DNA of 32,000 nt, taken from positions 1,470,001-1,502,000 of the forward strand of contig NC_005070.1 in NCBI RefSeq assembly GCF_000195975.1, in the 5' to 3' direction. The DNA comes from Parasynechococcus marenigrum WH 8102. Lineage in GTDB: Bacteria; Cyanobacteriota; Cyanobacteriia; PCC-6307; Cyanobiaceae. The position numbers and the translations under genes are program-made. Shown piece after piece: positions 23,439 to 32,000 of this stretch; position 1 is the stretch's first letter; every line of letters starts with the position of its first letter. The notes beneath the pieces are model-generated. The model was not told the DNA's origin. It worked only from the letters and a program-made list of their open reading frames with translations, and made no database searches.

Positions 23439-24238
23439 AACGCGCCACATAAGCCACCAGTCCACCGTAAAACCGGCTGTCTTCATAATACTCAAATAGC
23501 TAAGCTGTATGTATTCCAAATACGCGTTTTAGTGCCCAAACTTCAGCTTCCTATTCAGGCTGACCTGATCATCAATCGTCTGGGTATGGAAGCCAGTATT
23601 GAACGTCAGCGTGCAGTCTTTGAAATTGATGACAATGCACCACATGTGCCGTCGTACGACCCACTAGCAAATCCCCAAAGCCTACGTCTAGCAACCCATA
23701 TCAGCTGAATTTCAATCAATCGATGAGCAGATCAAGGGTCGTACCCAATCTGCAATTTTAATCTCAGACTCGTCAGCTTGAAGCCCGAATCGCCAAGATC
23801 GATGGCACTAAGCATCTCCTACCAACACGTAGATACAGTCAACCGGTAGACATGGCAAAAATCAGGCCAAACCTGACACTTACATCGCTTATTACACAAG
23901 ATTCCGCAGAGCTAGCTCACTTTTGGGGTATTGATCCTGGTATCCGTCACCGTTCGACCAGGAGAAAGAGAACAGAGCCATGGCAGCGCAGTCGTCAGCG
24001 ATGCGCCAGAGCGCCTTCGCGACAGTAACGAGAGAGCTACAAAGGTCCGCGAGAGCAGCTCACTTATGCGACACAACCCAAGTATTCGTCATCGCATGGG
24101 AGGGAGAGAAGGAAGCCAGAGCCAATGCAGTGGAATGGGTCTGGATCATCAAGGTCGTCATGGGGGGAACTAACAAGCCACACATTGCTTTTCAGGGAAA
24201 TAGAGAGATATTTATAGGAGTTCGTCACCCTGTACGCC

Positions 24239-24934
24239 ATGTTCATCACCGTTTTTGGCCAAAAAGGTGGTGTCGCCAAAACTTGTAGCAGTATTCACAT
24301 TGCAGCATGCTGGAGCTATCAGCAAAAACGGGTAGTCCTGGTTGACTCCGACTGCAACCGATCAGCAACTGCATATGGCGCCAGAGAACTCTTGCCCTTT
24401 CCGGTCGTGCCAATTGAAGCGGCAGCTAAAGCCACTCGATTAGCCGAAATTGTCATAACCGACGGACAGGCAAGCAGCAACGAAGATGAAATTAAAAATT
24501 TGGTCGAGGGAGCCGATTTTATTCTGCTTCCCACCACTACGCAAAGCAGATCAATCGAATTGACAGTTGAGATGTCACAGATGTTGAGAAAATATAGGGT
24601 TCCCTTTGCTGCACTACTTGTAAAAGTGGATGCACGCAAAGAAGCTGCAGCTGAACAAGCCATGGAATTACTTCAGGCATTCGACATCAAAGTTTTAGAC
24701 TCACAAATCCCACTTCTAAGCGCTTTTGAACAAGCAGAAACGGAAGGAGTCACTGTTGATCAAGCGGTTGACAAGCGTGGTCGTGCAAATCCACGCAGGA
24801 TGACCGGATGGTCGGCATACTGCGCTGCCTGCAAGGAAATTGAAGATCTATTCGAAGAGCACCAAAAACTGAGGAAGAATCAATCGCCAATCGGATGGGA
24901 CTTCACACGGATGGAACATCGTGTAGCCGGGTAA
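24239..24934 (+). CDS. parA: ParA/MinD-family partition ATPase (small, type Ib-like)
   Basis: 231 aa with the deviant Walker A GQKGGVAKT, VVLVDSD, and IVITDGQ...ADFILLPTTT. Confidence 0.8.
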   Translation: MFITVFGQKGGVAKTCSSIHIAACWSYQQKRVVLVDSDCNRSATAYGARELLPFPVVPIEAAAKATRLAEIVITDGQASSNEDEIKNLVEGADFILLPTTTQSRSIELTVEMSQMLRKYRVPFAALLVKVDARKEAAAEQAMELLQAFDIKVLDSQIPLLSAFEQAETEGVTVDQAVDKRGRANPRRMTGWSAYCAACKEIEDLFEEHQKLRKNQSPIGWDFTRMEHRVAG

Positions 24935-25102
24935 ATACTGATGTCTGGCAACTGGCCCATAACTGTGGTTCTATCAAGAGAACTAACATATCAAGCTTCA
25001 GACAACACTGAAACCGTGGCCGAGGGGCAATGGAACCTAGGCTTGCCTGTGCCTGACTGCAAGGCTCAACCAAAAAAAAATCATATCTAGTACCACCATC
25101 TG

Positions 25103-25603
25103 TCAGGATCCAATCTTTTCGGAGCCTCCTATAAGCGAATACTTGGTTGAAAGTTCATACATTTTCTGGTGAATAGATGTATCGCGATCCTCAACGGAAA
25201 ACCAATCAGGTTGGACTGGCTCCATCAAGATTCTGGGACCCAAATCAATTGCTTTATATTCCAAAACAATGAATATGCCATCACGGTCTTTGAACCCAAG
25301 CTCTGCTAAGAGCATGCCGCTGTTGGTGGGCAGACTAATCATGGCTTCATTTTTGTACATATTAATCTCTGTTGCTATGACGGTTGTAATGACATCGCTA
25401 TCTGAACTACTTGGGATGTCCCTGATCCTAAGTATAAGTTGAGAATCTGCCTCTTGCTTCACAAGTGTCAAGGCTTCAGTCTTAAGCAACCATTTACAAC
25501 TTATAAAGCCTGGATGGAGACTACATGAAAACCAGGAGCGATTGGCCAAAACCTCACCCTGCTCGTTTTTCAAAAAGCCAAGTAATCGAAGCAGACGTCT
25601 CAT
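25103..25603 (-). CDS. Hypothetical protein, DUF4912-like
   Basis: 166 aa and AT-rich. The pattern W-x-hydrophobic...LILRIRDIP...AMISLP...LLAELGFKDRDGIFIVL resembles cyanobacterial DUF4912 from memory (not verified). Confidence 0.5.
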   Translation of the reverse strand: MRRLLRLLGFLKNEQGEVLANRSWFSCSLHPGFISCKWLLKTEALTLVKQEADSQLILRIRDIPSSSDSDVITTVIATEINMYKNEAMISLPTNSGMLLAELGFKDRDGIFIVLEYKAIDLGPRILMEPVQPDWFSVEDRDTSIHQKMYELSTKYSLIGGSEKIGS

Positions 25604-25723
25604 GGGCCTAAAAATTTATTATCAACAGACCAATTGCAATCGCCTCGAAAAAATTACAATACTTGATCATCGTATAGCTTGTAACAAAATGCCTATATTT
25701 TGGATTGAGTAGAAAGTGCTTGA

Positions 25724-26383
25724 TTACACATCGCCAAGATTGACAATATCGTAAGAACTACTAGTTGCCTCTAGCAATCTAGAGTATCGGCTTCCCCTGT
25801 AACCATAATTATAATCAACATAGCTGATACTTGAGGTGTTCGTTAGCGCAGAAGATTCTGAAACCTCGACAGATTCACTCTCCGTGGAGACCTCCTCTGA
25901 CGTAGAGTTGTTTTTTAAGTTGTTTTGGTTGGCTTCTGGGTTTATAATAAGATCTGAAGGTAAGTCCCCGCCCTTGTTGATCACGGATTTTAATAATAAG
26001 AAGTCATTTGATTCAACTTTGGAGACATTCACCAGACGCGCTATCACCCCACCTTTCTTTCCATACCCTTTACCAGCTCCATTGGAATTCCAGAAGAGAA
26101 AACCCTTCTTTTGATCAAAAATCAAATCAACGTCATGTTTCGAGTGGACCTTAACAGCTTCTTTCCTGTTTTTAGCAAAATGTATGGATGTATCAGTGTC
26201 AAAGCGTCTAGAGATAAGCTCTATTTTATTCGCAGCTCTCGAAAAGGAAGATAGATCATATTTTAAATATTTGGCTTTCTTTTTTTGATGATTGAGAAAA
26301 ATCTGAAGATTGCCATCATCACTGAGAGAGGGTTTTCTCATGAGTCTGAGGTGACTGGATTTATAATGACAAAGGATTCTCAA
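25724..26383 (-). CDS. Hypothetical protein with internal tail-module homologous to the esterase C-terminus
   Basis: 219 aa (alternative ATG at 26341). DVDLIFDQKKGFLFWNSNGAGKGYGKKGGVIARL aligns with the esterase DFDFLYDQKKGGLYFNENGADKGFGEGGIIAIL. The C-terminal part is Ser/Glu/Thr-rich and low-complexity. Confidence 0.6.
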   Translation of the reverse strand: MRILCHYKSSHLRLMRKPSLSDDGNLQIFLNHQKKKAKYLKYDLSSFSRAANKIELISRRFDTDTSIHFAKNRKEAVKVHSKHDVDLIFDQKKGFLFWNSNGAGKGYGKKGGVIARLVNVSKVESNDFLLLKSVINKGGDLPSDLIINPEANQNNLKNNSTSEEVSTESESVEVSESSALTNTSSISYVDYNYGYRGSRYSRLLEATSSSYDIVNLGDV

Positions 26384-26424
26384 AAGCGTGGATCGAGTGC
26401 GCTATTCGTTCCAGGACGTACCCG

Positions 26425-26616
26425 ATGCCGAACATCCTTGATCACGTCTCACTAGCACCAGTCGTTGAAGTAGACGCTTGGCCACGCTCAGCATAACGCA
26501 AGGAATGGTTCGCCATCACAAGGGGCATCATTCAAGACACCATCGCTGACATGAACCTCGATCCTGCTGCTGAAGCAGACGTGATCGAAGCCTTCACTGG
26601 TGCAGGGCTGTTGTGA
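26425..26616 (+). pseudogene. Pseudogene of the 63-aa gene family (in-frame TAA at 26494-26496)
   Basis: It has the same 192-nt length as, and is colinear with, the intact copy 30562..30753. Codon 24 is TAA where the intact copy has ACA. Confidence 0.75.
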
Positions 26617-26635
26617 ATGATCAGGAGCTGACTAA

Positions 26636-26737
26636 CTAATGGTCGTGCAGCAGCAGCTCAAGCTCTCCATAGAAGAGAGCCATAGTGCCAACGATGGCCA
26701 CGCACAGGGTGGTAGTGAGAAGCAGTTCGTTGAGCAT
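26636..26737 (-). CDS. 33-aa single-TM peptide (copy 1)
   Basis: MLNELLLTTTLCVAIVGTMALFYGELELLLHDH, preceded by AAGGAGGaaaagATG. A second copy lies at 31233..31334 with 5 synonymous and 3 non-synonymous differences. Alternative frames are not conserved between the copies. Confidence 0.65.
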   Translation of the reverse strand: MLNELLLTTTLCVAIVGTMALFYGELELLLHDH

Positions 26738-26897
26738 CTTTTCCTCCTTGTCGCTGTCCTTGGTCTAAGACAAATAGTCAGCACTTGTAGCTATTATTAC
26801 AAGTCTGAATGGAGTGAAAACCGGCCAGCAAGACCGATAGGCTCAAATCGATCGCAGCGCAGTCAACCTCAGCGATTTGCACCCCTACAAGCGCCGG
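26738..26897. repeat. Conserved non-coding leader, copy A
   Basis: Aligns with 31335..31495 and more loosely with 30955..31165. Contains the core GCAGCGCAGTCAACCTCAGCGATTT (26854-26878) bracketed by AAATCG/CGATTT and CCGGC/GCCGG inverted repeats. Confidence 0.7.
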
Positions 26898-27423
26898 GTA
26901 ACATCAGCCACCTGACCAGACAAATGCTTCAAGCCGCACCAAAATCAACTGCGATCCTCCTCCAATCTTTTACGTGATCTGAATAAACCGTCACGCCAAA
27001 CAGCAAGGGCACTCAGAGGCTTGAGTAGTTTCGTCAGCACGATTGTGGATACAGGAATCATTGATCGTCGCTCCACAACCTGGACGCGGCAAAACGCCAA
27101 GCGACGATTGAACTTGCAGAGGCACCGAAAGCAAGAAATGCTATCAGCATCTGGGAGGTATCCATGGGAAATTTACAAGAGAGGCTCTCCTAGCTACTCA
27201 CTAACGACTGGCGCTGTTGTTACCAATTTGGAGCAGCAACCACTGGTCCCGAAATATCCGTGTCATCTCAGCAATGCAGCTGACCCAATAAATCGCCGCT
27301 GATCAACATGGCAAGGGCCGCTAAGGCAAGCAGCTGTATCAGCAAGACGTCGCCACAATGGGATGACGAACTGCTCGAAGCTGTAGTATCAATGCTCAAA
27401 GCGCATGGTCTGCTGTAAGCGAA

Positions 27424-28620
27424 ATGAAGCCAGAAAACTTCACTTCAGAAAAGATTCCCGCTTCTCTCGATGAAGTGTCTTTGAATTATTTCGCTCACGA
27501 TGGTAATAAAAGAGAGTATTTAACATACATTCCATCAGGCTACTCGCACACAATTGAAGCTCCTGTCATTCTTAATTTTCATGGATTCGGGGGCACTGCC
27601 TCTGGGCAACTTGCTTTATCGGACTGGAGAGACCTAGCAGAAAAGCATGGCATTATTTTAATCTATCCTCAAGGGCTTGAACTGCAGAAAGGCGGAAGTC
27701 ATTGGAATCCCGATCCTGTGTCAAGTGACAGCAAAAGCATAAGTGACGACTTGGGATTTGTAAGACGATTGCTAAAGAGAATCTCAAAGAATTATTCAAT
27801 CGACAAATCACGTGTGTATGCAACTGGCTATTCCAACGGAGCAGGGATGGCATACGGGCTGGCACATCATATGCCCGACCTAATAGCAGGAATTGCTCCC
27901 GTATCAGGGTTGATGAATGACGAATATCTTTCAACTACTTCTGGCGGTTCACCTGTTGGTCTTATAAGTTTTAATGGCGAAGAAGATTGGGTACGCCCAG
28001 TCAATGGCATTAATGGATACTTGGCGTCTGTTGCTGACATATCAAGCCATTGGGCTAGGGAAAATAGTTCAACGCAAAGTATAGCCGAGCAATTCGCACA
28101 AGCCAATGGTGATCGCATTGAACGCACCTCCTACTCTCGAGATGATGGATTGACTACCGTTGAACAATACTTAGTAGACAGGGGTGGCCATGAGTGGTTT
28201 GATCTTGATATCGAAGGCAAAGATCTAAATCAACTTGCGTGGCAGTTTCTTTCGAGACTAAGGAAACAAGATGAAGGCATCTTAACGGCGCGCAAGAAAT
28301 CTCTTGAACTCCGATTGCCAGATGTTTTTACGCGAGGGTTGGCAGACAAGGTTATCAATTTCAATGCATTAACAGATGCAATAGATATTGATATCAATAG
28401 CTTCGGCATTAACAGATCAGCAACGTTCGAAACTGGCAAAAACAAGAAGGAAGTCAAGAAAGTTCTTGCCAAGCAAGACTTCGACTTCCTCTACGACCAG
28501 AAGAAGGGTGGGCTTTACTTCAACGAAAATGGGGCAGACAAAGGCTTTGGGGAAGGCGGCATCATTGCCATCCTTAAAGGCGCACCTGATCTAACGTCTA
28601 GCAATCTAGAGTTTATCTAA
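27424..28620 (+). CDS. LpqC/PHB-depolymerase-family (alpha/beta hydrolase) esterase with C-terminal tail module
   Basis: 398 aa with YLTYIPSGY...PVILNFHGFGG, DDLGFVRRLL and the GYSNGAGM nucleophile elbow. The N-terminus is hydrophilic (no signal peptide). The last ~85 aa are homologous to an internal segment of 25724..26383. Confidence 0.8.
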   Translation: MKPENFTSEKIPASLDEVSLNYFAHDGNKREYLTYIPSGYSHTIEAPVILNFHGFGGTASGQLALSDWRDLAEKHGIILIYPQGLELQKGGSHWNPDPVSSDSKSISDDLGFVRRLLKRISKNYSIDKSRVYATGYSNGAGMAYGLAHHMPDLIAGIAPVSGLMNDEYLSTTSGGSPVGLISFNGEEDWVRPVNGINGYLASVADISSHWARENSSTQSIAEQFAQANGDRIERTSYSRDDGLTTVEQYLVDRGGHEWFDLDIEGKDLNQLAWQFLSRLRKQDEGILTARKKSLELRLPDVFTRGLADKVINFNALTDAIDIDINSFGINRSATFETGKNKKEVKKVLAKQDFDFLYDQKKGGLYFNENGADKGFGEGGIIAILKGAPDLTSSNLEFI

Positions 28621-28650
28621 GGCATCTCCCTAGTTGATCTTCTCCGATAA

Positions 28651-29037
28651 GTGCCTATGGCAATCACCACACGAGCGCAACGCCAGCAACGACGTTACGA
28701 GGCTCTACAGCTGATCAGCTGTGGTGTTCCGCCAACTGATGCTGCTTCACAGCTGACTGTTAAGTGGGGTTGCAGTCGGCGAACGAGTCTGCGTGACATA
28801 GAAAGCGTGCATAGTGAACTAGCAAACGCCTTGGATTCGGTTGAGCTTCAGCAGATGATGGGTTGGCTGGCAACGCAGTATCAACGCCTGGCGGCCAAGG
28901 CTGAACGCGATGGCCAGTACGCCTCAGCTGTTGGTGCGTTGAACGCATTGCGAGCAATGGTTGTGCAACCGCAACTGGATGCGCAGTTTGCTGCGCACTT
29001 CCGTGGTCGCTTTACGCACCAAACGCACCGCAGGTAA
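28651..29037 (+). CDS. 128-aa HTH-like protein, paralog 1 (WGCSRR motif)
   Basis: Paralogous to 31520..31906; both share ...G(V)....(A)..L...WGCSRR...R....H and an Ala/Gly-rich helix (G.(Y/F)A.A(V/I)GA). The probable start is the ATG at 28657. Confidence 0.65.
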   Translation: MPMAITTRAQRQQRRYEALQLISCGVPPTDAASQLTVKWGCSRRTSLRDIESVHSELANALDSVELQQMMGWLATQYQRLAAKAERDGQYASAVGALNALRAMVVQPQLDAQFAAHFRGRFTHQTHRR

Positions 29038-29076
29038 CAATCGGTTTAAAATTATGTAGTAAGTCATTGGGATGAG

Positions 29077-29295
29077 GTGCAGATGATTAAATCCTTCCTG
29101 ACTATTGTTGGCGCGATAATTACTGTTGCATGCCCAGTAGCTAAGGCTGCTGAAGAAGATGACCAACAAACGCAAGAACCAAAAACATATGAAAGATGCG
29201 TGCTGGTCGCTTCTGAAAGGAATACAAAGTGGACTCAGTACAGAGTCGATGTCAATAACTGCAGAGCTAAATACGGCATGCCAGGTGAGTACTAA
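29077..29295 (+). CDS. Small secreted or lipoprotein-like protein
   Basis: The ATG at 29083 is preceded by GAGG. MIKSFLTIVGAIITVACPVAKA is signal-peptide-like, followed by an acidic stretch and 2 Cys in the mature part. Confidence 0.45.
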   Translation: MQMIKSFLTIVGAIITVACPVAKAAEEDDQQTQEPKTYERCVLVASERNTKWTQYRVDVNNCRAKYGMPGEY

Positions 29296-29536
29296 TACAT
29301 GTCTTGATAGTTCAAACTCTGGGACAACGGTCTAGCTTGAGCATCAACCCAATGACTGGGAGGTACTTCTTATGCTCGCTCGACCTCACCTTGTTCTGGG
29401 TTGGCTCCATTGCCAACCAGAGGACAGCAGATGACTTCTCGATCGGCAGCTAACCCATCGCGATCATTCGCTGGAGGCTGATCCAAGCTTCAGCGGTACC
29501 CAACCGAGCTTCGTTGAAGAGACCTGGGTCAACTGG

Positions 29537-29719
29537 TTGCCGAAGGCTGTCGCTCAACCCTTCTACAGAGACCAGCTCACCGCCCATGTTGCAGAGGTGG
29601 AACGCCAAATCTCCAACCTCAGCCGCGAGATTGAACGGCAGTCCGGCGGCCTGCTCGATCAGAGAGATTCAGCTGTGGATCTCAGGCAACGTCTCAAACA
29701 TATGCTGGAGGGCTCGTAA
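29537..29719 (+). CDS. Hypothetical ~60-aa coiled-coil protein (start uncertain)
   Basis: TTG start in the track; the frame is open from 29435 with no ATG. The 3' end is duplicated as a fragment at 30479..30521 with mostly synonymous changes, which supports this frame. Confidence 0.35.
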   Translation: MPKAVAQPFYRDQLTAHVAEVERQISNLSREIERQSGGLLDQRDSAVDLRQRLKHMLEGS

Positions 29720-29826
29720 ATATAGAAAGTTTTCATTAAAAGGTAAGAAGCGCTACAAATATTAGAATATCTACTATTTCGCGGCATCGCTCAATAGTAG
29801 ATTTTAGAGTCAGTAGCAAGCAAGTT

Positions 29827-30423
29827 GTGCCTGAGGAGATCTTCTACGCAAAAGGGGCTGTAATTCAAAGCCATTACGCGATCTCAAATGAAGCACCAGA
29901 CTCCTGGTCTTATTGCATCAAAGCAATAGCATCTGAGCGAGGTAACAATTTTGATGAAGTAATCGAATACAGAGATAGGCAATTACTGCGTCAGATGAGT
30001 CTCGTCAATAACAATGCAAGAGACCCACTGAATGTTGTGCAGACAAGGTTTGATCGGGTTGGATACAATTCATTTGCAATTGACTTTTATCACTCAAATA
30101 AAACACCTGAATTGGTATTTATCTCACCTATCTGTAAGCCTGAAAAATCAGATTTGTCATACGGCTCAATCGCGGATATCGCGTATACATTCAATTGTAA
30201 TTGCGATGTGAATTCTAAATGTTCCAAATTCATTCAAAGCACAACTCTTTTAGGAATAAATTTGATCAAGAAGGGTCGCTTGGAGGGGATAGAGTCGACA
30301 AGGGAGAAAATTATGGAGGAGTTCTCTACATACAATAGAGGTAGAGAAGTTGACATTAGCGAGGTGGCTCTAAAAAATAATAATTCTCAAAGTATATTAG
30401 AAGATTTGTCTCAGCTAAATTAA
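29827..30423 (+). CDS. Hypothetical 198-aa protein in a very AT-rich cassette
   Basis: GTG start with Asn/Ile/Lys-rich composition and no recognisable motif. This is the most AT-rich stretch of the window. Confidence 0.45.
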   Translation: MPEEIFYAKGAVIQSHYAISNEAPDSWSYCIKAIASERGNNFDEVIEYRDRQLLRQMSLVNNNARDPLNVVQTRFDRVGYNSFAIDFYHSNKTPELVFISPICKPEKSDLSYGSIADIAYTFNCNCDVNSKCSKFIQSTTLLGINLIKKGRLEGIESTREKIMEEFSTYNRGREVDISEVALKNNNSQSILEDLSQLN

Positions 30424-30478
30424 TAAAAATATTGATAAATTCAAATTTTTGTGCATTTGATCAATCTTATACATTTTT

Positions 30479-30521
30479 GGGATCTCAGACAACGTCTTAA
30501 GCACCTGCTGGAGACCTCATA
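30479..30521 (+). pseudogene. Orphan 3' fragment of a paralog of the 60-aa gene
   Basis: 35/43 nt are identical to 29677..29719. It translates to DLRQRLKHLLETS* versus DLRQRLKHMLEGS*. Confidence 0.6.
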
Positions 30522-30561
30522 ACCCTGCTCAACCATCCGTTTCCAGACGCACCAGATACCG

Positions 30562-30753
30562 ATGCCGAACATTCTTGATCACGTCTCACAAGCACCAGTT
30601 CTTGAAATAGACGATTTGCCACGCTCGGCAACACGCAAGGAATGGTTCGCCATCACCAGGCGCATCATTCAAGACACCATCGCTGACATGAAACTCGATC
30701 CCGCTGCGGAAACAGAAGTAATTGAAGCCTTCACAGGTGCAGGTCTGCTGTGA
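30562..30753 (+). CDS. 63-aa acidic protein (intact family member)
   Basis: MPNILDHVSQAPVLEIDDLPRSATRKEWFAITRRIIQDTIADMKLDPAAETEVIEAFTGAGLL. It has a pseudogene copy at 26425 and a tail remnant at 31171. Confidence 0.55.
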   Translation: MPNILDHVSQAPVLEIDDLPRSATRKEWFAITRRIIQDTIADMKLDPAAETEVIEAFTGAGLL

Positions 30754-30768
30754 GGGCTGTCATGCCCC

Positions 30769-30954
30769 TTACTGCATTAGGTCATCAGTTGGCCTTGCAG
30801 GGACAGTCGCCACTGCATCACCTGGCGTTGCTACTTGAGGATTGATTTGGTTCCAGCCATTGAACATGTGAATGCCTGCAATGAACGCCAGAGCAATCAT
30901 CAAGTAACCGATTCGGTTTTCCTCTTGGAAGGCTTGTCTTTCTTTTTTTGTCAT
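30769..30954 (-). CDS. 61-aa single-TM protein
   Basis: MTKKERQAFQEENRIGYLMIALAFIAGIHMFNGW..., preceded by AAGGAGGtcacaggATG. It occupies the same position (convergent, 15 nt from the 63-aa gene stop) as the 33-aa peptide genes in the other modules. Confidence 0.55.
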   Translation of the reverse strand: MTKKERQAFQEENRIGYLMIALAFIAGIHMFNGWNQINPQVATPGDAVATVPARPTDDLMQ

Positions 30955-31165
30955 CCTGTGACCTCCTTGCTACGCGGTCTTCCCCATGGCTTTGGTCTAC
31001 GCCTTTGGAGCAGACACTTGTGTTGGTTGTCACATTTCTGCATGGAGAGAAAAACAGCCATAAAGATGCGCCGGCAGGCAAGCGGACGGACGCTAAATCC
31101 AGTGCAGCGCAGTCAATCTCAGCGATTTAACCATCAAACGGACGGGCCCAACACGGCCTTGCAGC
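30955..31165. repeat. Conserved non-coding leader, copy B (divergent)
   Basis: Shares the TTGGTCTA, CACTTGT and ATGGAG(A/T)(G/A)AAAA(A)C blocks and the core GCAGCGCAGTCAATCTCAGCGATTT (31104-31128) with copies A and C. Confidence 0.6.
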
Positions 31166-31170
31166 GGCCC

Positions 31171-31213
31171 AGCAGAAGCGATCGAAGCCTTCACTGGTGC
31201 AGGGCTGTTGTGA
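31171..31213 (+). pseudogene. 3' remnant of a 63-aa family gene
   Basis: 31181..31218 is 38/38 identical to 26584..26621 (IEAFTGAGLL* plus 5 nt). The homologous coding sequence upstream is missing. Confidence 0.7.
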
Positions 31214-31232
31214 ATGATTGGAAGCTGACCAA

Positions 31233-31334
31233 CTAGTGATCTTGTAGCAGAAGCTGAAGCTCTCCATAGAAGAGAGCCATAGCGCCAACGATGGCCACGC
31301 ACAGGGTGGTGGTGAGAAGCAGTTCGTTGAGCAT
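31233..31334 (-). CDS. 33-aa single-TM peptide (copy 2)
   Basis: MLNELLLTTTLCVAIVGAMALFYGELQLLLQDH, preceded by AAGGATGaaaagATG. See copy 1. Confidence 0.65.
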   Translation of the reverse strand: MLNELLLTTTLCVAIVGAMALFYGELQLLLQDH

Positions 31335-31495
31335 CTTTTCATCCTTATCTTTGTCCTTGGTCTAAGACAAACCGTCAGCACTTGTAGCTCTTGTCACGAG
31401 CCTGAATGGAGTAAAAACCGGCCACTACAACCGATAGGCTCAGATCCACTGCATTGCAGTCGTTCTCAGCGACTTGTCCCCCTCAAAAGCGCCGG
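31335..31495. repeat. Conserved non-coding leader, copy C
   Basis: Colinear with 26738..26897. The core variant is GCATTGCAGTCGTTCTCAGCGACTT (31451-31475), with the CCGGC(31418)/GCCGG(31491) bracket conserved. Confidence 0.7.
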
Positions 31496-31519
31496 TTCCA
31501 ACCTTCCAAGTAGCAAGCC

Positions 31520-31906
31520 ATGACCCGCAAGCGCGTAACCGCTAGCGAGAAGAAACAACGCCATGCATGGGCGATACGTCAGATCGACAAAGGCGTCGGC
31601 TTCTCCGAGCTTGCGACCCTTGTGGCCGAAACATGGGGGTGTTCACGTCGACAAGCCCGTCGTGTCGTAGCTGATGCCCACAAAGAGTGGATGGAGATTG
31701 CCTTCGGAGCTGAGGAGATCGATCAGCGTGACCTGCTGATGCAAAGCGTCGCCCGCCTGGAGCGCACTGCGCGTAAGGCGGAAGCAAGCGGCAACTTCGC
31801 CTGTGCGATCGGCGCGGTTCAGCTGATGAATCGAATGATGGCCTCAGGTGCTGATCAGACGGGATGCCGCGGTCATCGCCGCAAAGGGCACTACTACCGG
31901 CACTGA
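31520..31906 (+). CDS. 128-aa HTH-like protein, paralog 2 (WGCSRR motif)
   Basis: MTRKRVTASEKKQRHAWAIRQIDKGVGFSELATLVAETWGCSRRQARRVV...; paralog of 28651..29037. It lies immediately downstream of leader copy C. Confidence 0.65.
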   Translation: MTRKRVTASEKKQRHAWAIRQIDKGVGFSELATLVAETWGCSRRQARRVVADAHKEWMEIAFGAEEIDQRDLLMQSVARLERTARKAEASGNFACAIGAVQLMNRMMASGADQTGCRGHRRKGHYYRH

Positions 31907-32000
31907 CTACTTCTGCCCGTACTCGATTATGAGTCGTTTCTGGAAGTTGAGTTGGCGGAGCTTCTCGATGTGCTGCTCATGCTCTCCGCTGCTCCAGTGG
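31907..32000 (-). CDS. 3' end of an unidentified gene entering from the right
   Basis: The minus-strand frame is open from the window edge to a TAG at 31907-31909 (...HWSSGEHEQHIEKLRQLNFQKRLIIEYGQK*). Its stop abuts the stop of the HTH-like gene. Confidence 0.3.
   Translation of the reverse strand, partial: HWSSGEHEQHIEKLRQLNFQKRLIIEYGQK

Follow-up and report, generated by a model that had tools for sequence, protein, structure and literature searches.

A low-GC island in the genome of the marine cyanobacterium Parasynechococcus marenigrum WH 8102 carries two copies of pep33, a gene encoding a 33-amino acid (aa) single-helix membrane peptide, and one copy of pep61, an unrelated 61-aa gene located in an equivalent position. 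The stretch analyzed (hereafter, the window) comprises 32,000 nucleotides (nt) of contig NC_005070.1, positions 1,470,001 to 1,502,000 of the forward strand, and all coordinates given without a locus name refer to it; the two pep33 open reading frames (ORFs) lie at 26636–26737 (copy A) and 31233–31334 (copy C), and pep61 at 30769–30954, all on the minus strand. The three small ORFs prove to be genuine genes, conserved and encoding very short membrane peptides with a single helix, and comparison of sequence profiles indicates that the 33-aa family is related to a 30–31-aa ORF of cyanophages, a relationship that is new here. The reading we prefer, to which we give about an even chance, is that pep33 is a regulated mini-gene for a single-pass membrane microprotein, shared between phage and host, that would act on a host component.

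Marine Synechococcus and the T4-like phages that infect them are of major importance in ocean carbon cycling, and most of the small genes that they share are invisible to annotation. Phage/host-shared genes for small membrane proteins in picocyanobacterial islands are not, as a kind of system, new; pep33 provides a tractable case for asking which microproteins phages and islands trade, and whether these act on host membranes during infection or nutrient stress.

A conserved family of 33-residue membrane peptides

The products of the two window genes, MLNELLLTTTLCVAIVGTMALFYGELELLLHDH (copy A) and MLNELLLTTTLCVAIVGAMALFYGELQLLLQDH (copy C), are encoded by ORFs that a first-pass annotation of this DNA had described as differing at 8 nt, five of them synonymous. 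Codon-by-codon comparison confirms this count: the five synonymous differences fall at third positions, and the other three replace residues (T18A, E27Q and H31Q). The same annotation held that alternative frames are not conserved along with the coding frame, which is also correct, as the +1 frame of the same strand is uninterrupted in both copies with the differences appearing as replacements, and the antisense frame, a 112-aa plus-strand ORF (26639–26977), encounters a stop in copy C. The overlapping frames (50 and 84 aa on the same strand, 112 aa antisense) were rejected as genes on the basis of these replacement-position substitutions and the antisense stop. Canonical Shine-Dalgarno (SD) sequences precede all three genes, as had been noted: AAGGAGG at 26743–26749 (minus strand), 5 nt before the ATG of pep33 A; AAGGATG, also with a 5-nt spacer, before pep33 C; and AAGGAGG with a 7-nt spacer before pep61. 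The SD is kept across the pep33 family, some copies having single-base variants.

A profile built from the two window peptides was searched against 1.84 billion representative proteins, yielding 24 representative clusters with the common core MLNExxLTTTLCxAIVGxMALFYGExxLLQxxH; longer database entries are mostly clear N-terminal over-calls that run through the SD (reading ...KEEK-M). The exact protein encoded by copy A has been called in 104 blocks of public assemblies. In 46 loci retrieved from such assemblies (individual loci are denoted below by L numbers) there are 17 distinct intact 99-nt pep33 ORFs, in which variable sites are distributed 14/7/23 over codon positions 1/2/3. The mean ratio of nonsynonymous to synonymous substitution rates (dN/dS) of the 33-aa family is ~0.33, and its length is kept; damaged copies number only three (L046 has a frameshift, whereas L017 and L028 have lost their stops). 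One sub-lineage (L039–L043; e.g. L041 3998–4099) has tandem ATGs (MMLNE...), a serine in place of Cys12 and a different downstream flank. The coding constraint that had been proposed for the single-helix peptide genes thus finds support in the dN/dS value, in the 14/7/23 pattern and in the 24 clusters of pep33 relatives, and for the 61-aa family in its 32 clusters. Family conservation, the codon-position pattern and dN/dS rule out the possibility that these ORFs are spurious.

The best 15-residue Kyte-Doolittle window of the pep33 peptides (residues 5–19) scores 2.07–2.24, and the product is predicted to insert into a membrane. The window peptides contain zero Lys or Arg, and three to four acidic residues. 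Pfam returned no family at E≤0.1 for the window peptides, and at E≤10 only chance matches (SecE, a plectrovirus transmembrane protein) for 20 pep33 family members; searches of the peptides against NCBIfam produced only Psb35-related and FtsX models, with weak scores, and no toxin family. No PDB chain matched the peptide by sequence, and a full-text literature search with the peptide motifs found no paper. In databases the peptides are present as unnamed hypothetical proteins only, and their phage counterparts lack annotation in most of the records listed.

A related open reading frame in T4-like cyanophages

Four IMG/VR contigs encode a 31-aa relative of pep33, and genes for PhoH, thymidylate synthase, an exonuclease and a helicase loader on one of these contigs identify it as belonging to a T4-like cyanophage. 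A tblastn search with the phage version located a 30–31-aa ORF in 33 GenBank phage records, all from phages that infect marine Synechococcus, including the myophages S-SM1, Syn19, Syn2, S-T4, S-CAM1, S-BM1, S-8S56 and Sf-FS3; an example is GU071094.1 158894–158986 (L047 2501–2593). Most of the records listed have no annotation at this position. In S-SM1 and Syn19, the coding sequences annotated over the ORF are longer (70 and 55 codons, respectively) than the 30–31-aa reading. A scan of viral contigs for the motif MALFYGE gave mostly chance matches in unrelated proteins.

In all seven phage records inspected, the ORF starts 3–7 nt past the stop of a 54–55-aa ORF, which is labelled T4-GC937 or gp198-like in four. 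The phage ORF lies on the same strand as its neighbors, adjoins talC in three of the seven records, and has no convergent gene annotated beside it in any; a metagenomic cyanophage contig (L018) has a layout identical to that of the inspected records. Phage clusters of the ORF are annotated as T4-GC 1456 or 984.

Nine phage sequences give the consensus MEALQxxGxxSLGCVAxMxLLYGEILLLQKx, and the phage ORFs likewise exhibit a pattern of constrained variation, with a ratio of nonsynonymous to synonymous polymorphism (pN/pS) of 0.37 and variable sites distributed 20/11/26 over the codon positions. Alignment of the host and phage family profiles with hhalign gave a probability of 97% and a score of 42 over 23 columns, as compared with a mean of 9 and a maximum of 18 in 200 column shuffles of the phage alignment, and a score of 8 for the reversed alignment. 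We take the host and phage families to be related.

The peptide gene travels with its own upstream block

The repeats of the region (300 nt at 87% identity, plus 195 nt at 89%) far exceed what is expected by chance. An alignment of about 30 distinct copies of the pep33 cassette was assembled, with conservation and folding statistics calculated on 28 of them. The long conserved leader proposed in the first-pass annotation proved to be composite: the modules do share upstream blocks, and ~95 nt of these travel with the gene, but the sequence beyond ~26838 belongs to a separate 40-nt motif of the island. The travelling unit begins at TGGCCGGTTTTCAC (TGGCCGGTTTT), ~95 nt before the ATG, and ends ~10–20 nt past the stop. 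This cassette recurs away from the convergent 63-aa gene described below in several loci; the upstream block is absent from the divergent member L044 and from every phage member.

Several elements can be recognized within the block of copy A. At its upstream end, GGCCGGTTTTCACTCCATTCAG (26805–26826, minus strand) holds the CUCC sequence that had been read as an ‘anti-SD’; the 22-nt block GGCCGGTTTTYACTCCATTCAG occurs twice in the window, as compared with 0.00 occurrences expected. A perfect palindrome, TGTA-N8-TACA, follows at 26786–26801. It contains GTA-N8-TAC, an NtcA/CRP-type site, and is the sole match in the 32-kb window (0.07 expected). GTA-N8-TAC is perfect in 19 of the 28 cassettes, with six different spacers, and one mismatch away in another seven; copy C has GTG-N8-TAC and the pep61 module (module B) GTG-N8-CAC, and the palindrome varies on one side only, as expected of a protein site. 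Among the non-coding elements of the cassette, the hexamer TAGACC (26762–26767, minus strand) is conserved best; it is a candidate −10-like element or RNA loop and is present in 27 of 28 distinct cassettes and in the pep61 module as well. Its nucleotide diversity (pi) is 0.012, versus 0.048 at codon position 2 of the ORF, 0.07 for TGTCT, and 0.09 for both TGGCCGGTTTTCAC and the SD.

The corresponding block of pep33 C (31340–31423, minus strand) contains the SD AAGGATG (31340–31346), TAGACC (31359–31364), an imperfect palindrome, CGTG-N8-TACA (31383–31398), and GGCCGGTTTTTACTCCATTCAG (31402–31423), and that of pep61 (30962–31034, minus strand) contains the SD AAGGAGG (30962–30968), TAGACC (30994–30999) and the palindrome TGTG-N8-CACA (31019–31034). 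The block as far as TAGACCAAGG is thus common to the unrelated genes pep33 and pep61, and the stretch from there to the SD measures 14 versus 28 nt; a block shared up to this point, followed by a variable distance to the SD, is the pattern expected from a shared promoter-operator module. The −10 box of NtcA-type promoters has the form TAN3T. GTA-N8-TAC is the consensus binding site of NtcA, which is normally centered near −41.5 (PMC3898017).

Just upstream of cassette A (26820–26838, minus strand), the sequence itself reads as a terminator-like hairpin, ATCGGTC-TTGCT-GGCCGGT, with a T-run after it, and a consensus scan flagged the equivalent hairpin and T-run upstream of cassette C (31417–31435, minus strand). 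The T-run of the hairpin is TTTTCAC, the same letters that had earlier been read as the anti-SD.

A proposed mode of action

In the reading that we prefer, each unit is a self-contained mini-gene of ~210 bp, consisting of a ~95-nt control block, a strong SD and a short ORF, that occupies a fixed slot in the decaying backbone of a tycheposon-like mobile element, on the strand opposite to the backbone genes and between the 63-aa gene and a motif upstream of the 128-aa gene. This compact, horizontally moving mini-gene encodes, in the case of pep33, a conserved single-helix microprotein of a family common to Synechococcus islands and T4-like myophages. Its peptide would insert into the membrane and bind a conserved host membrane component through the juxtamembrane residues M-A-L-F-Y-G-E and the L-L that follows, and the phage version would share this target. 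A regulator, NtcA or another member of the CRP family, would switch the island copy from the GTA-N8-TAC palindrome, resulting in condition-dependent expression, and control would not be exerted by antisense RNA; both this regulator and the transcription start are inferred. The 61-aa protein is a different membrane protein that uses the slot and the upstream block of pep33. Neither pep33 nor pep61 is a demonstrated toxin.

Several observations weigh against this picture. TAGACC does not end in the T expected of a sigma-70 −10 box and lies 19 nt past the palindrome (20 nt in module B) rather than ~22 nt, such that the canonical geometry of an NtcA class II promoter is not attained, and a consensus scan detected a sigma-70-like site in copy A only. 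The loci are closely related, and cassette counts are therefore not counts of independent events. The binding partner is a pure inference; the family has no Pfam match and only a weak NCBIfam match that is not family-wide. In addition, as detailed in the next section, a predicted fold of the leader hides the SD, which leaves room for control at the RNA level.

Alternative explanations

The first-pass annotation had suggested that the CUCC of the leader could pair with the SD. CUCC is indeed present in all three modules, and in a single-sequence fold of copy A (26636–26837, minus strand; 202 nt) UUUUC-A-CUCC pairs with GGAGGAAAA and hides the SD (z = −3.1), but covariation provides no support. 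RNAalifold applied to the 28 sequences did not recover the anti-SD helix and returned a covariation term of −0.42 kcal/mol; none of 34 pairs in four candidate helices is compensatory, 90.7% of their cells are paired versus 91.1% in shuffles, and the central U-A pair of the CUCC:GGAG helix is broken in 10 of the 28 sequences. Because these sequences diverge little, the covariation result represents a lack of support rather than a refutation. Three hairpins are 85–95% pairable across the same sequences, as compared with ~50% in slid controls. A cis-acting RNA leader, in which the block would control translation by sequestering the SD (as a thermosensor or a ligand- or protein-responsive switch) with no antisense RNA involved, would accommodate the anti-SD fold, the pairable hairpins, the absence of a canonical sigma-70 promoter inside the block, and the terminator-like hairpin and U-run at its 5′ edge. 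Against it stand the lack of compensatory change, the failure of RNAalifold to recover the helix, the one-sided, protein-site-like changes in the palindrome, and the absence of the block from L044 and from every phage member; we consider this reading a minority possibility.

The annotation had gone further and proposed a type I toxin-antitoxin or addiction module, in which a membrane toxin would be encoded by an mRNA silenced by its structured leader and neutralized by antisense read-through from the convergent 63-aa gene, stabilizing the mobile element. The peptides are small, hydrophobic and single-helix, the modules are repeated, and they lie in a mobile-element backbone that also includes a ParA-like gene. 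Moreover, the peptide genes are intact where neighboring backbone genes are broken, as had been claimed for the 63-aa gene, stops or frameshifts being present in the 63-, 115- and 132-aa genes, and the anti-SD fold could be read as leader silencing. The convergent arrangement itself was also accurately described: the 63-aa gene adjoins the cassette in most loci at a distance of 15–25 nt, with gaps of 19 (A), 18 (C) and 15 nt (pep61) in the window. However, this partner is not constant. In the window, only copy B (30562–30753, plus strand) is intact; copy A (26425–26616, plus strand; 84% identity by tblastn), which converges on pep33 A, is a pseudogene with an in-frame TAA at 26494–26496, and copy C (31171–31214, plus strand) is a 44-nt remnant of the last ~12 codons, a remnant found beside pep33 C in L003 and L012 as well (tblastn). 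Copy C is directly preceded by the backbone motif and upstream block of the pep61 module, leaving no promoter of a 63-aa gene there. Beyond the window, the 63-aa gene is missing beside the cassette in L031, L033, L034, L038–L043 (which include the tandem-ATG sub-lineage), L027–L030 and L044; in L031, L033 and L034 the cassette lies among unrelated genes, with a co-directional ORF downstream.

A consensus scan found no promoter-like site on the plus strand of the cassettes, and Rfam detected no RNA at its gathering score across the window, and none at E≤1 in 26300–31600; the anti-SD helix does not covary and is broken at its center in more than a third of the copies; and the phage relatives closely follow the preceding stop codon with no convergent gene annotated in the seven records. 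Many type I toxins have charged, often basic, termini. The window peptides are acidic and devoid of Lys and Arg, and no homology to known toxin families (Hok/Gef, Ldr, Fst, TisB, Ibs, ShoB, TxpA, BsrG and others) was detected with Pfam or NCBIfam. Conservation is residue-specific in both host and phage, which favors a specific partner over generic membrane damage. Compared with hok/sok, ldr/rdl, ibs/sib and fst/RNAII, the locus is thus similar in its small hydrophobic single-helix peptide genes with good SDs, its repeated modules, conserved upstream sequence, location on or near mobile DNA and nearby convergent unit, but differs in that neither a dedicated antisense gene nor its promoter was found, the cassette can do without the convergent partner, the leader lacks covariation, the acidic peptides have no toxin-family homology, and the phage relatives have no annotated convergent gene. 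Nothing that we found supports the type I label, whose defining antisense partner was not found, and we regard such a system as quite unlikely here. Type I systems have been stated to be known only from Proteobacteria, Firmicutes and Tenericutes, a Microcystis aeruginosa locus, msoT1/msoA1, being proposed as the first cyanobacterial candidate (PMC12390103, 2025). In that case, too, a small cyanobacterial protein gene was put forward, on sequence features, as a type I toxin, but msoT1/msoA1 is backed by toxicity experiments in E. coli and by mapping of the promoter of its antitoxin (PMC12390103), whereas the window locus is described here from its sequence. A true type I system in the window would be notable for cyanobacteria.

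A role in conflict between mobile elements, in which the island would be a tycheposon-like, possibly phage-parasitic element and its microprotein a competitor or mimic of the phage peptide (in superinfection exclusion, or in disturbing the timing of lysis or takeover), is a possible function of the same gene, rather than an exclusive alternative to the reading that we prefer. It would be consistent with the sharing of the family with 33 myophage records, with an integrase and a primase-helicase-like protein in the context of L001, with the inclusion of phage-inducible chromosomal island (PICI)-like phage parasites among tycheposons, as stated in their description (bioRxiv 10.1101/2020.12.28.424599), and with a phage small terminase as the best, non-significant, structural match of the 128-aa backbone protein. 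That match has an E-value of only 0.6, no PADLOC defense family is represented among the module proteins, and gene sharing is equally typical of metabolic and photosynthetic helper genes; we judge this role unlikely. A broader formulation, in which the island copy encodes a peptide that is active at membranes, is expressed only under certain conditions, and derives from the cyanophage microprotein or mimics it, with an addiction, abortive-infection or superinfection-exclusion role for a tycheposon-like (possibly phage-parasitic) element and under CRP/NtcA or RNA-leader control rather than that of a classical antisense RNA, seems to us distinctly doubtful; were it true, this would be a small-peptide toxin or exclusion module of a sort undescribed in marine picocyanobacteria.

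The peptide might instead be a thylakoid helper, that is, a small subunit of a photosynthetic complex, or a factor in its assembly, carried in the manner of hli genes; in one version, it would be a Psb35-like helix stabilizing assemblies of high-light-inducible proteins (HLIPs) with CP47. The NCBIfam model NF047380 (‘photosystem II protein, Psb35-related’) matches residues 2–31 of both window peptides (26639–26737 and 31236–31334; E = 0.006 and 0.1, respectively), and the multi-copy distribution of the family over phages and islands parallels that of hli. These matches reach 16.9 and 12.9 bits against a cut-off of 80 and cover model positions 4–33 of 75; only two of 20 family members, and no phage peptides, match the model, no Pfam small-subunit family appears at E≤10, and no PDB chain was recovered. 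Known small photosystem and cytochrome families were rejected as the identity of pep33, there being no Pfam match and no family-wide match to NF047380. The peptide resembles Psb35-related proteins in its N-terminal transmembrane helix, in addition to the weak profile match, but has no counterpart to the remaining ~45 residues of the 75-position model, and neither the rest of the family nor the phage peptides share the match. HLIPs, the products of hli genes, are short single-helix membrane proteins encoded by T4-like cyanophages and by multiple copies in host islands, some of the host copies being reported to respond to nitrogen stress. Like them, pep33 is short, single-helix, and present in T4-like cyanophages and in several host-island copies; unlike them, it lacks the chlorophyll-binding ExxN/HxR motif, is half the size, and exhibits no sequence similarity. 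Psb35 stabilizes HLIPs on the CP47 module (PMC11449106). A helper of this type appears to us very unlikely.

The 61-aa gene

The first-pass annotation placed a 61-aa ORF in the same position of the third module, and pep61 (30769–30954, minus strand) is indeed found there. Its product has one hydrophobic stretch (15-residue Kyte-Doolittle window of 2.07, residues 17–31) and belongs to a family whose 32 clusters are 75–98% identical and nearly all exactly 61 aa long. Homology between pep33 and pep61 was rejected (hhalign probability 0.6%), and no phage relatives of the 61-aa protein were found.

The island backbone and its mobile-element context

The modules lie in the right third of the window, a low-GC island (45–50% GC versus about 60–65% to the left) that is essentially identical to the ENA metagenome scaffold L002 and syntenic with a region of strain RS9915 (CP047934; L017). 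In RS9915, a cultured strain, pep33 lies at about 1,453,897–1,453,995 and 1,458,478–1,458,576, and pep61 at about 1,458,014–1,458,196. The island is built up of recurring copies of a backbone with the order [132 aa][115 aa][63 aa][slot][40-nt motif][126/128 aa], recognizable in the window (23762–32000), in L014 (3216–4724) and in L017 (3228–12731), with low-GC cargo genes inserted between backbone copies. The slot may be empty or hold pep33 or pep61; L014, where the order is 63-aa gene, two motif copies and 126-aa gene with an empty slot, shows that the peptide genes occupy an optional position in the backbone.

The 40-nt motif lies outside the peptide cassette, at 26840–26879 (nhmmer E = 2.6e-9), 31095–31128 (copy B; E = 8e-8) and 31437–31476 (copy C; E = 1.5e-11), the last 44 nt upstream of the 128-aa gene. 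Its plus-strand form is GGCTCA.ATC...CTGC..GCAG..CTCAGCGA; it is located upstream of the 126/128-aa gene, is sometimes present in tandem (L014 4218–4320), and occurs whether or not a peptide cassette is there. Its possible roles are those of operator, recombination site or packaging-type site. An RNA stem within the motif was rejected, as pairing across variants, read by eye, is inconsistent and without covariation.

Among the backbone genes, the 63-aa gene has 418 related clusters in marine Synechococcus, and scanning genome contigs with the single 63-aa protein identified four loci. An AlphaFold2 (AF2) model of the protein (mean predicted local distance difference test score, pLDDT, of 75) suggests a helical hairpin, as predicted for the product of the intact copy B, with no structural match. 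The 128-aa gene (31520–31906, plus strand; 525 related clusters) is divergent from pep33 C, and a second copy at 28651–29037 is 28% identical to it. The AF2 model of the 128-aa protein (pLDDT 81) is predicted to be all-helical, with one 44-residue helix; Pfam gives a weak HTH_23 match (E = 0.024) on the 28651–29037 copy only, and the best PDB match, the small terminase of phage G20C, is not significant and is unusable as evidence. Were the terminase likeness real, it would be in keeping with the lifestyle of a phage satellite. The 115-aa gene is interrupted by an in-frame TGA (29432–29434), and its 3′ end is duplicated, at 29674–29719 and 30479–30522, on either side of a low-GC 198-aa cargo gene; the 132-aa gene persists only as a partial, low-identity remnant (23762–24025; 39% over residues 20–119).

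A metagenome-assembled genome locus, L001, places the 128-aa/pep33/63-aa unit within ~13 kb of sequence that also includes a tyrosine integrase (Phage_integrase), a DUF3854/AAA_25 protein and a tRNA-Pro, the tRNA being about 1.4 kb away. This combination of integrase, DUF3854 protein and tRNA matches tycheposons as characterized by Hackl et al. (bioRxiv 10.1101/2020.12.28.424599), and Synechococcus examples of such elements have been reported (PMC8995045). The window looks like a tandem set of decayed remnants of tycheposon-like elements. Judged against the available part of that description, the similarities are the tRNA-adjacent position of L001, with its tyrosine integrase and primase-helicase-like protein, and the decayed tandem remnants and low-GC cargo of the window; the differences are that no tRNA was found in the window and no integrase among the proteins scanned in its island part, and that none of the backbone genes (132, 115, 63 and 128 aa) is among the hallmark genes named there. 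No module protein matched a PADLOC defense family.

Other genes of the island include one for a ParA/CbiA-type ATPase at its left edge (24239–24934; Pfam E = 7e-13), with no ParB-like partner seen among the surrounding ORFs. A 72-aa protein with a signal peptide-like N-terminus is encoded between the 128- and 115-aa genes (29077–29295) and is 98–100% identical in related loci. Finally, a domain of ~90 residues (FDFLYDQKKGGLYFNENG...GFG..GG), which has no Pfam name, is common to otherwise unrelated cargo proteins: an esterase-like 398-aa protein (27424–28620; residues 300–398), a 219-aa protein (25724–26383; residues 47–131), and 600- and 1063-aa proteins of RS9915 (L017 14465–14776 and 18613–18921). 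This shared domain may serve to target or anchor the cargo proteins.

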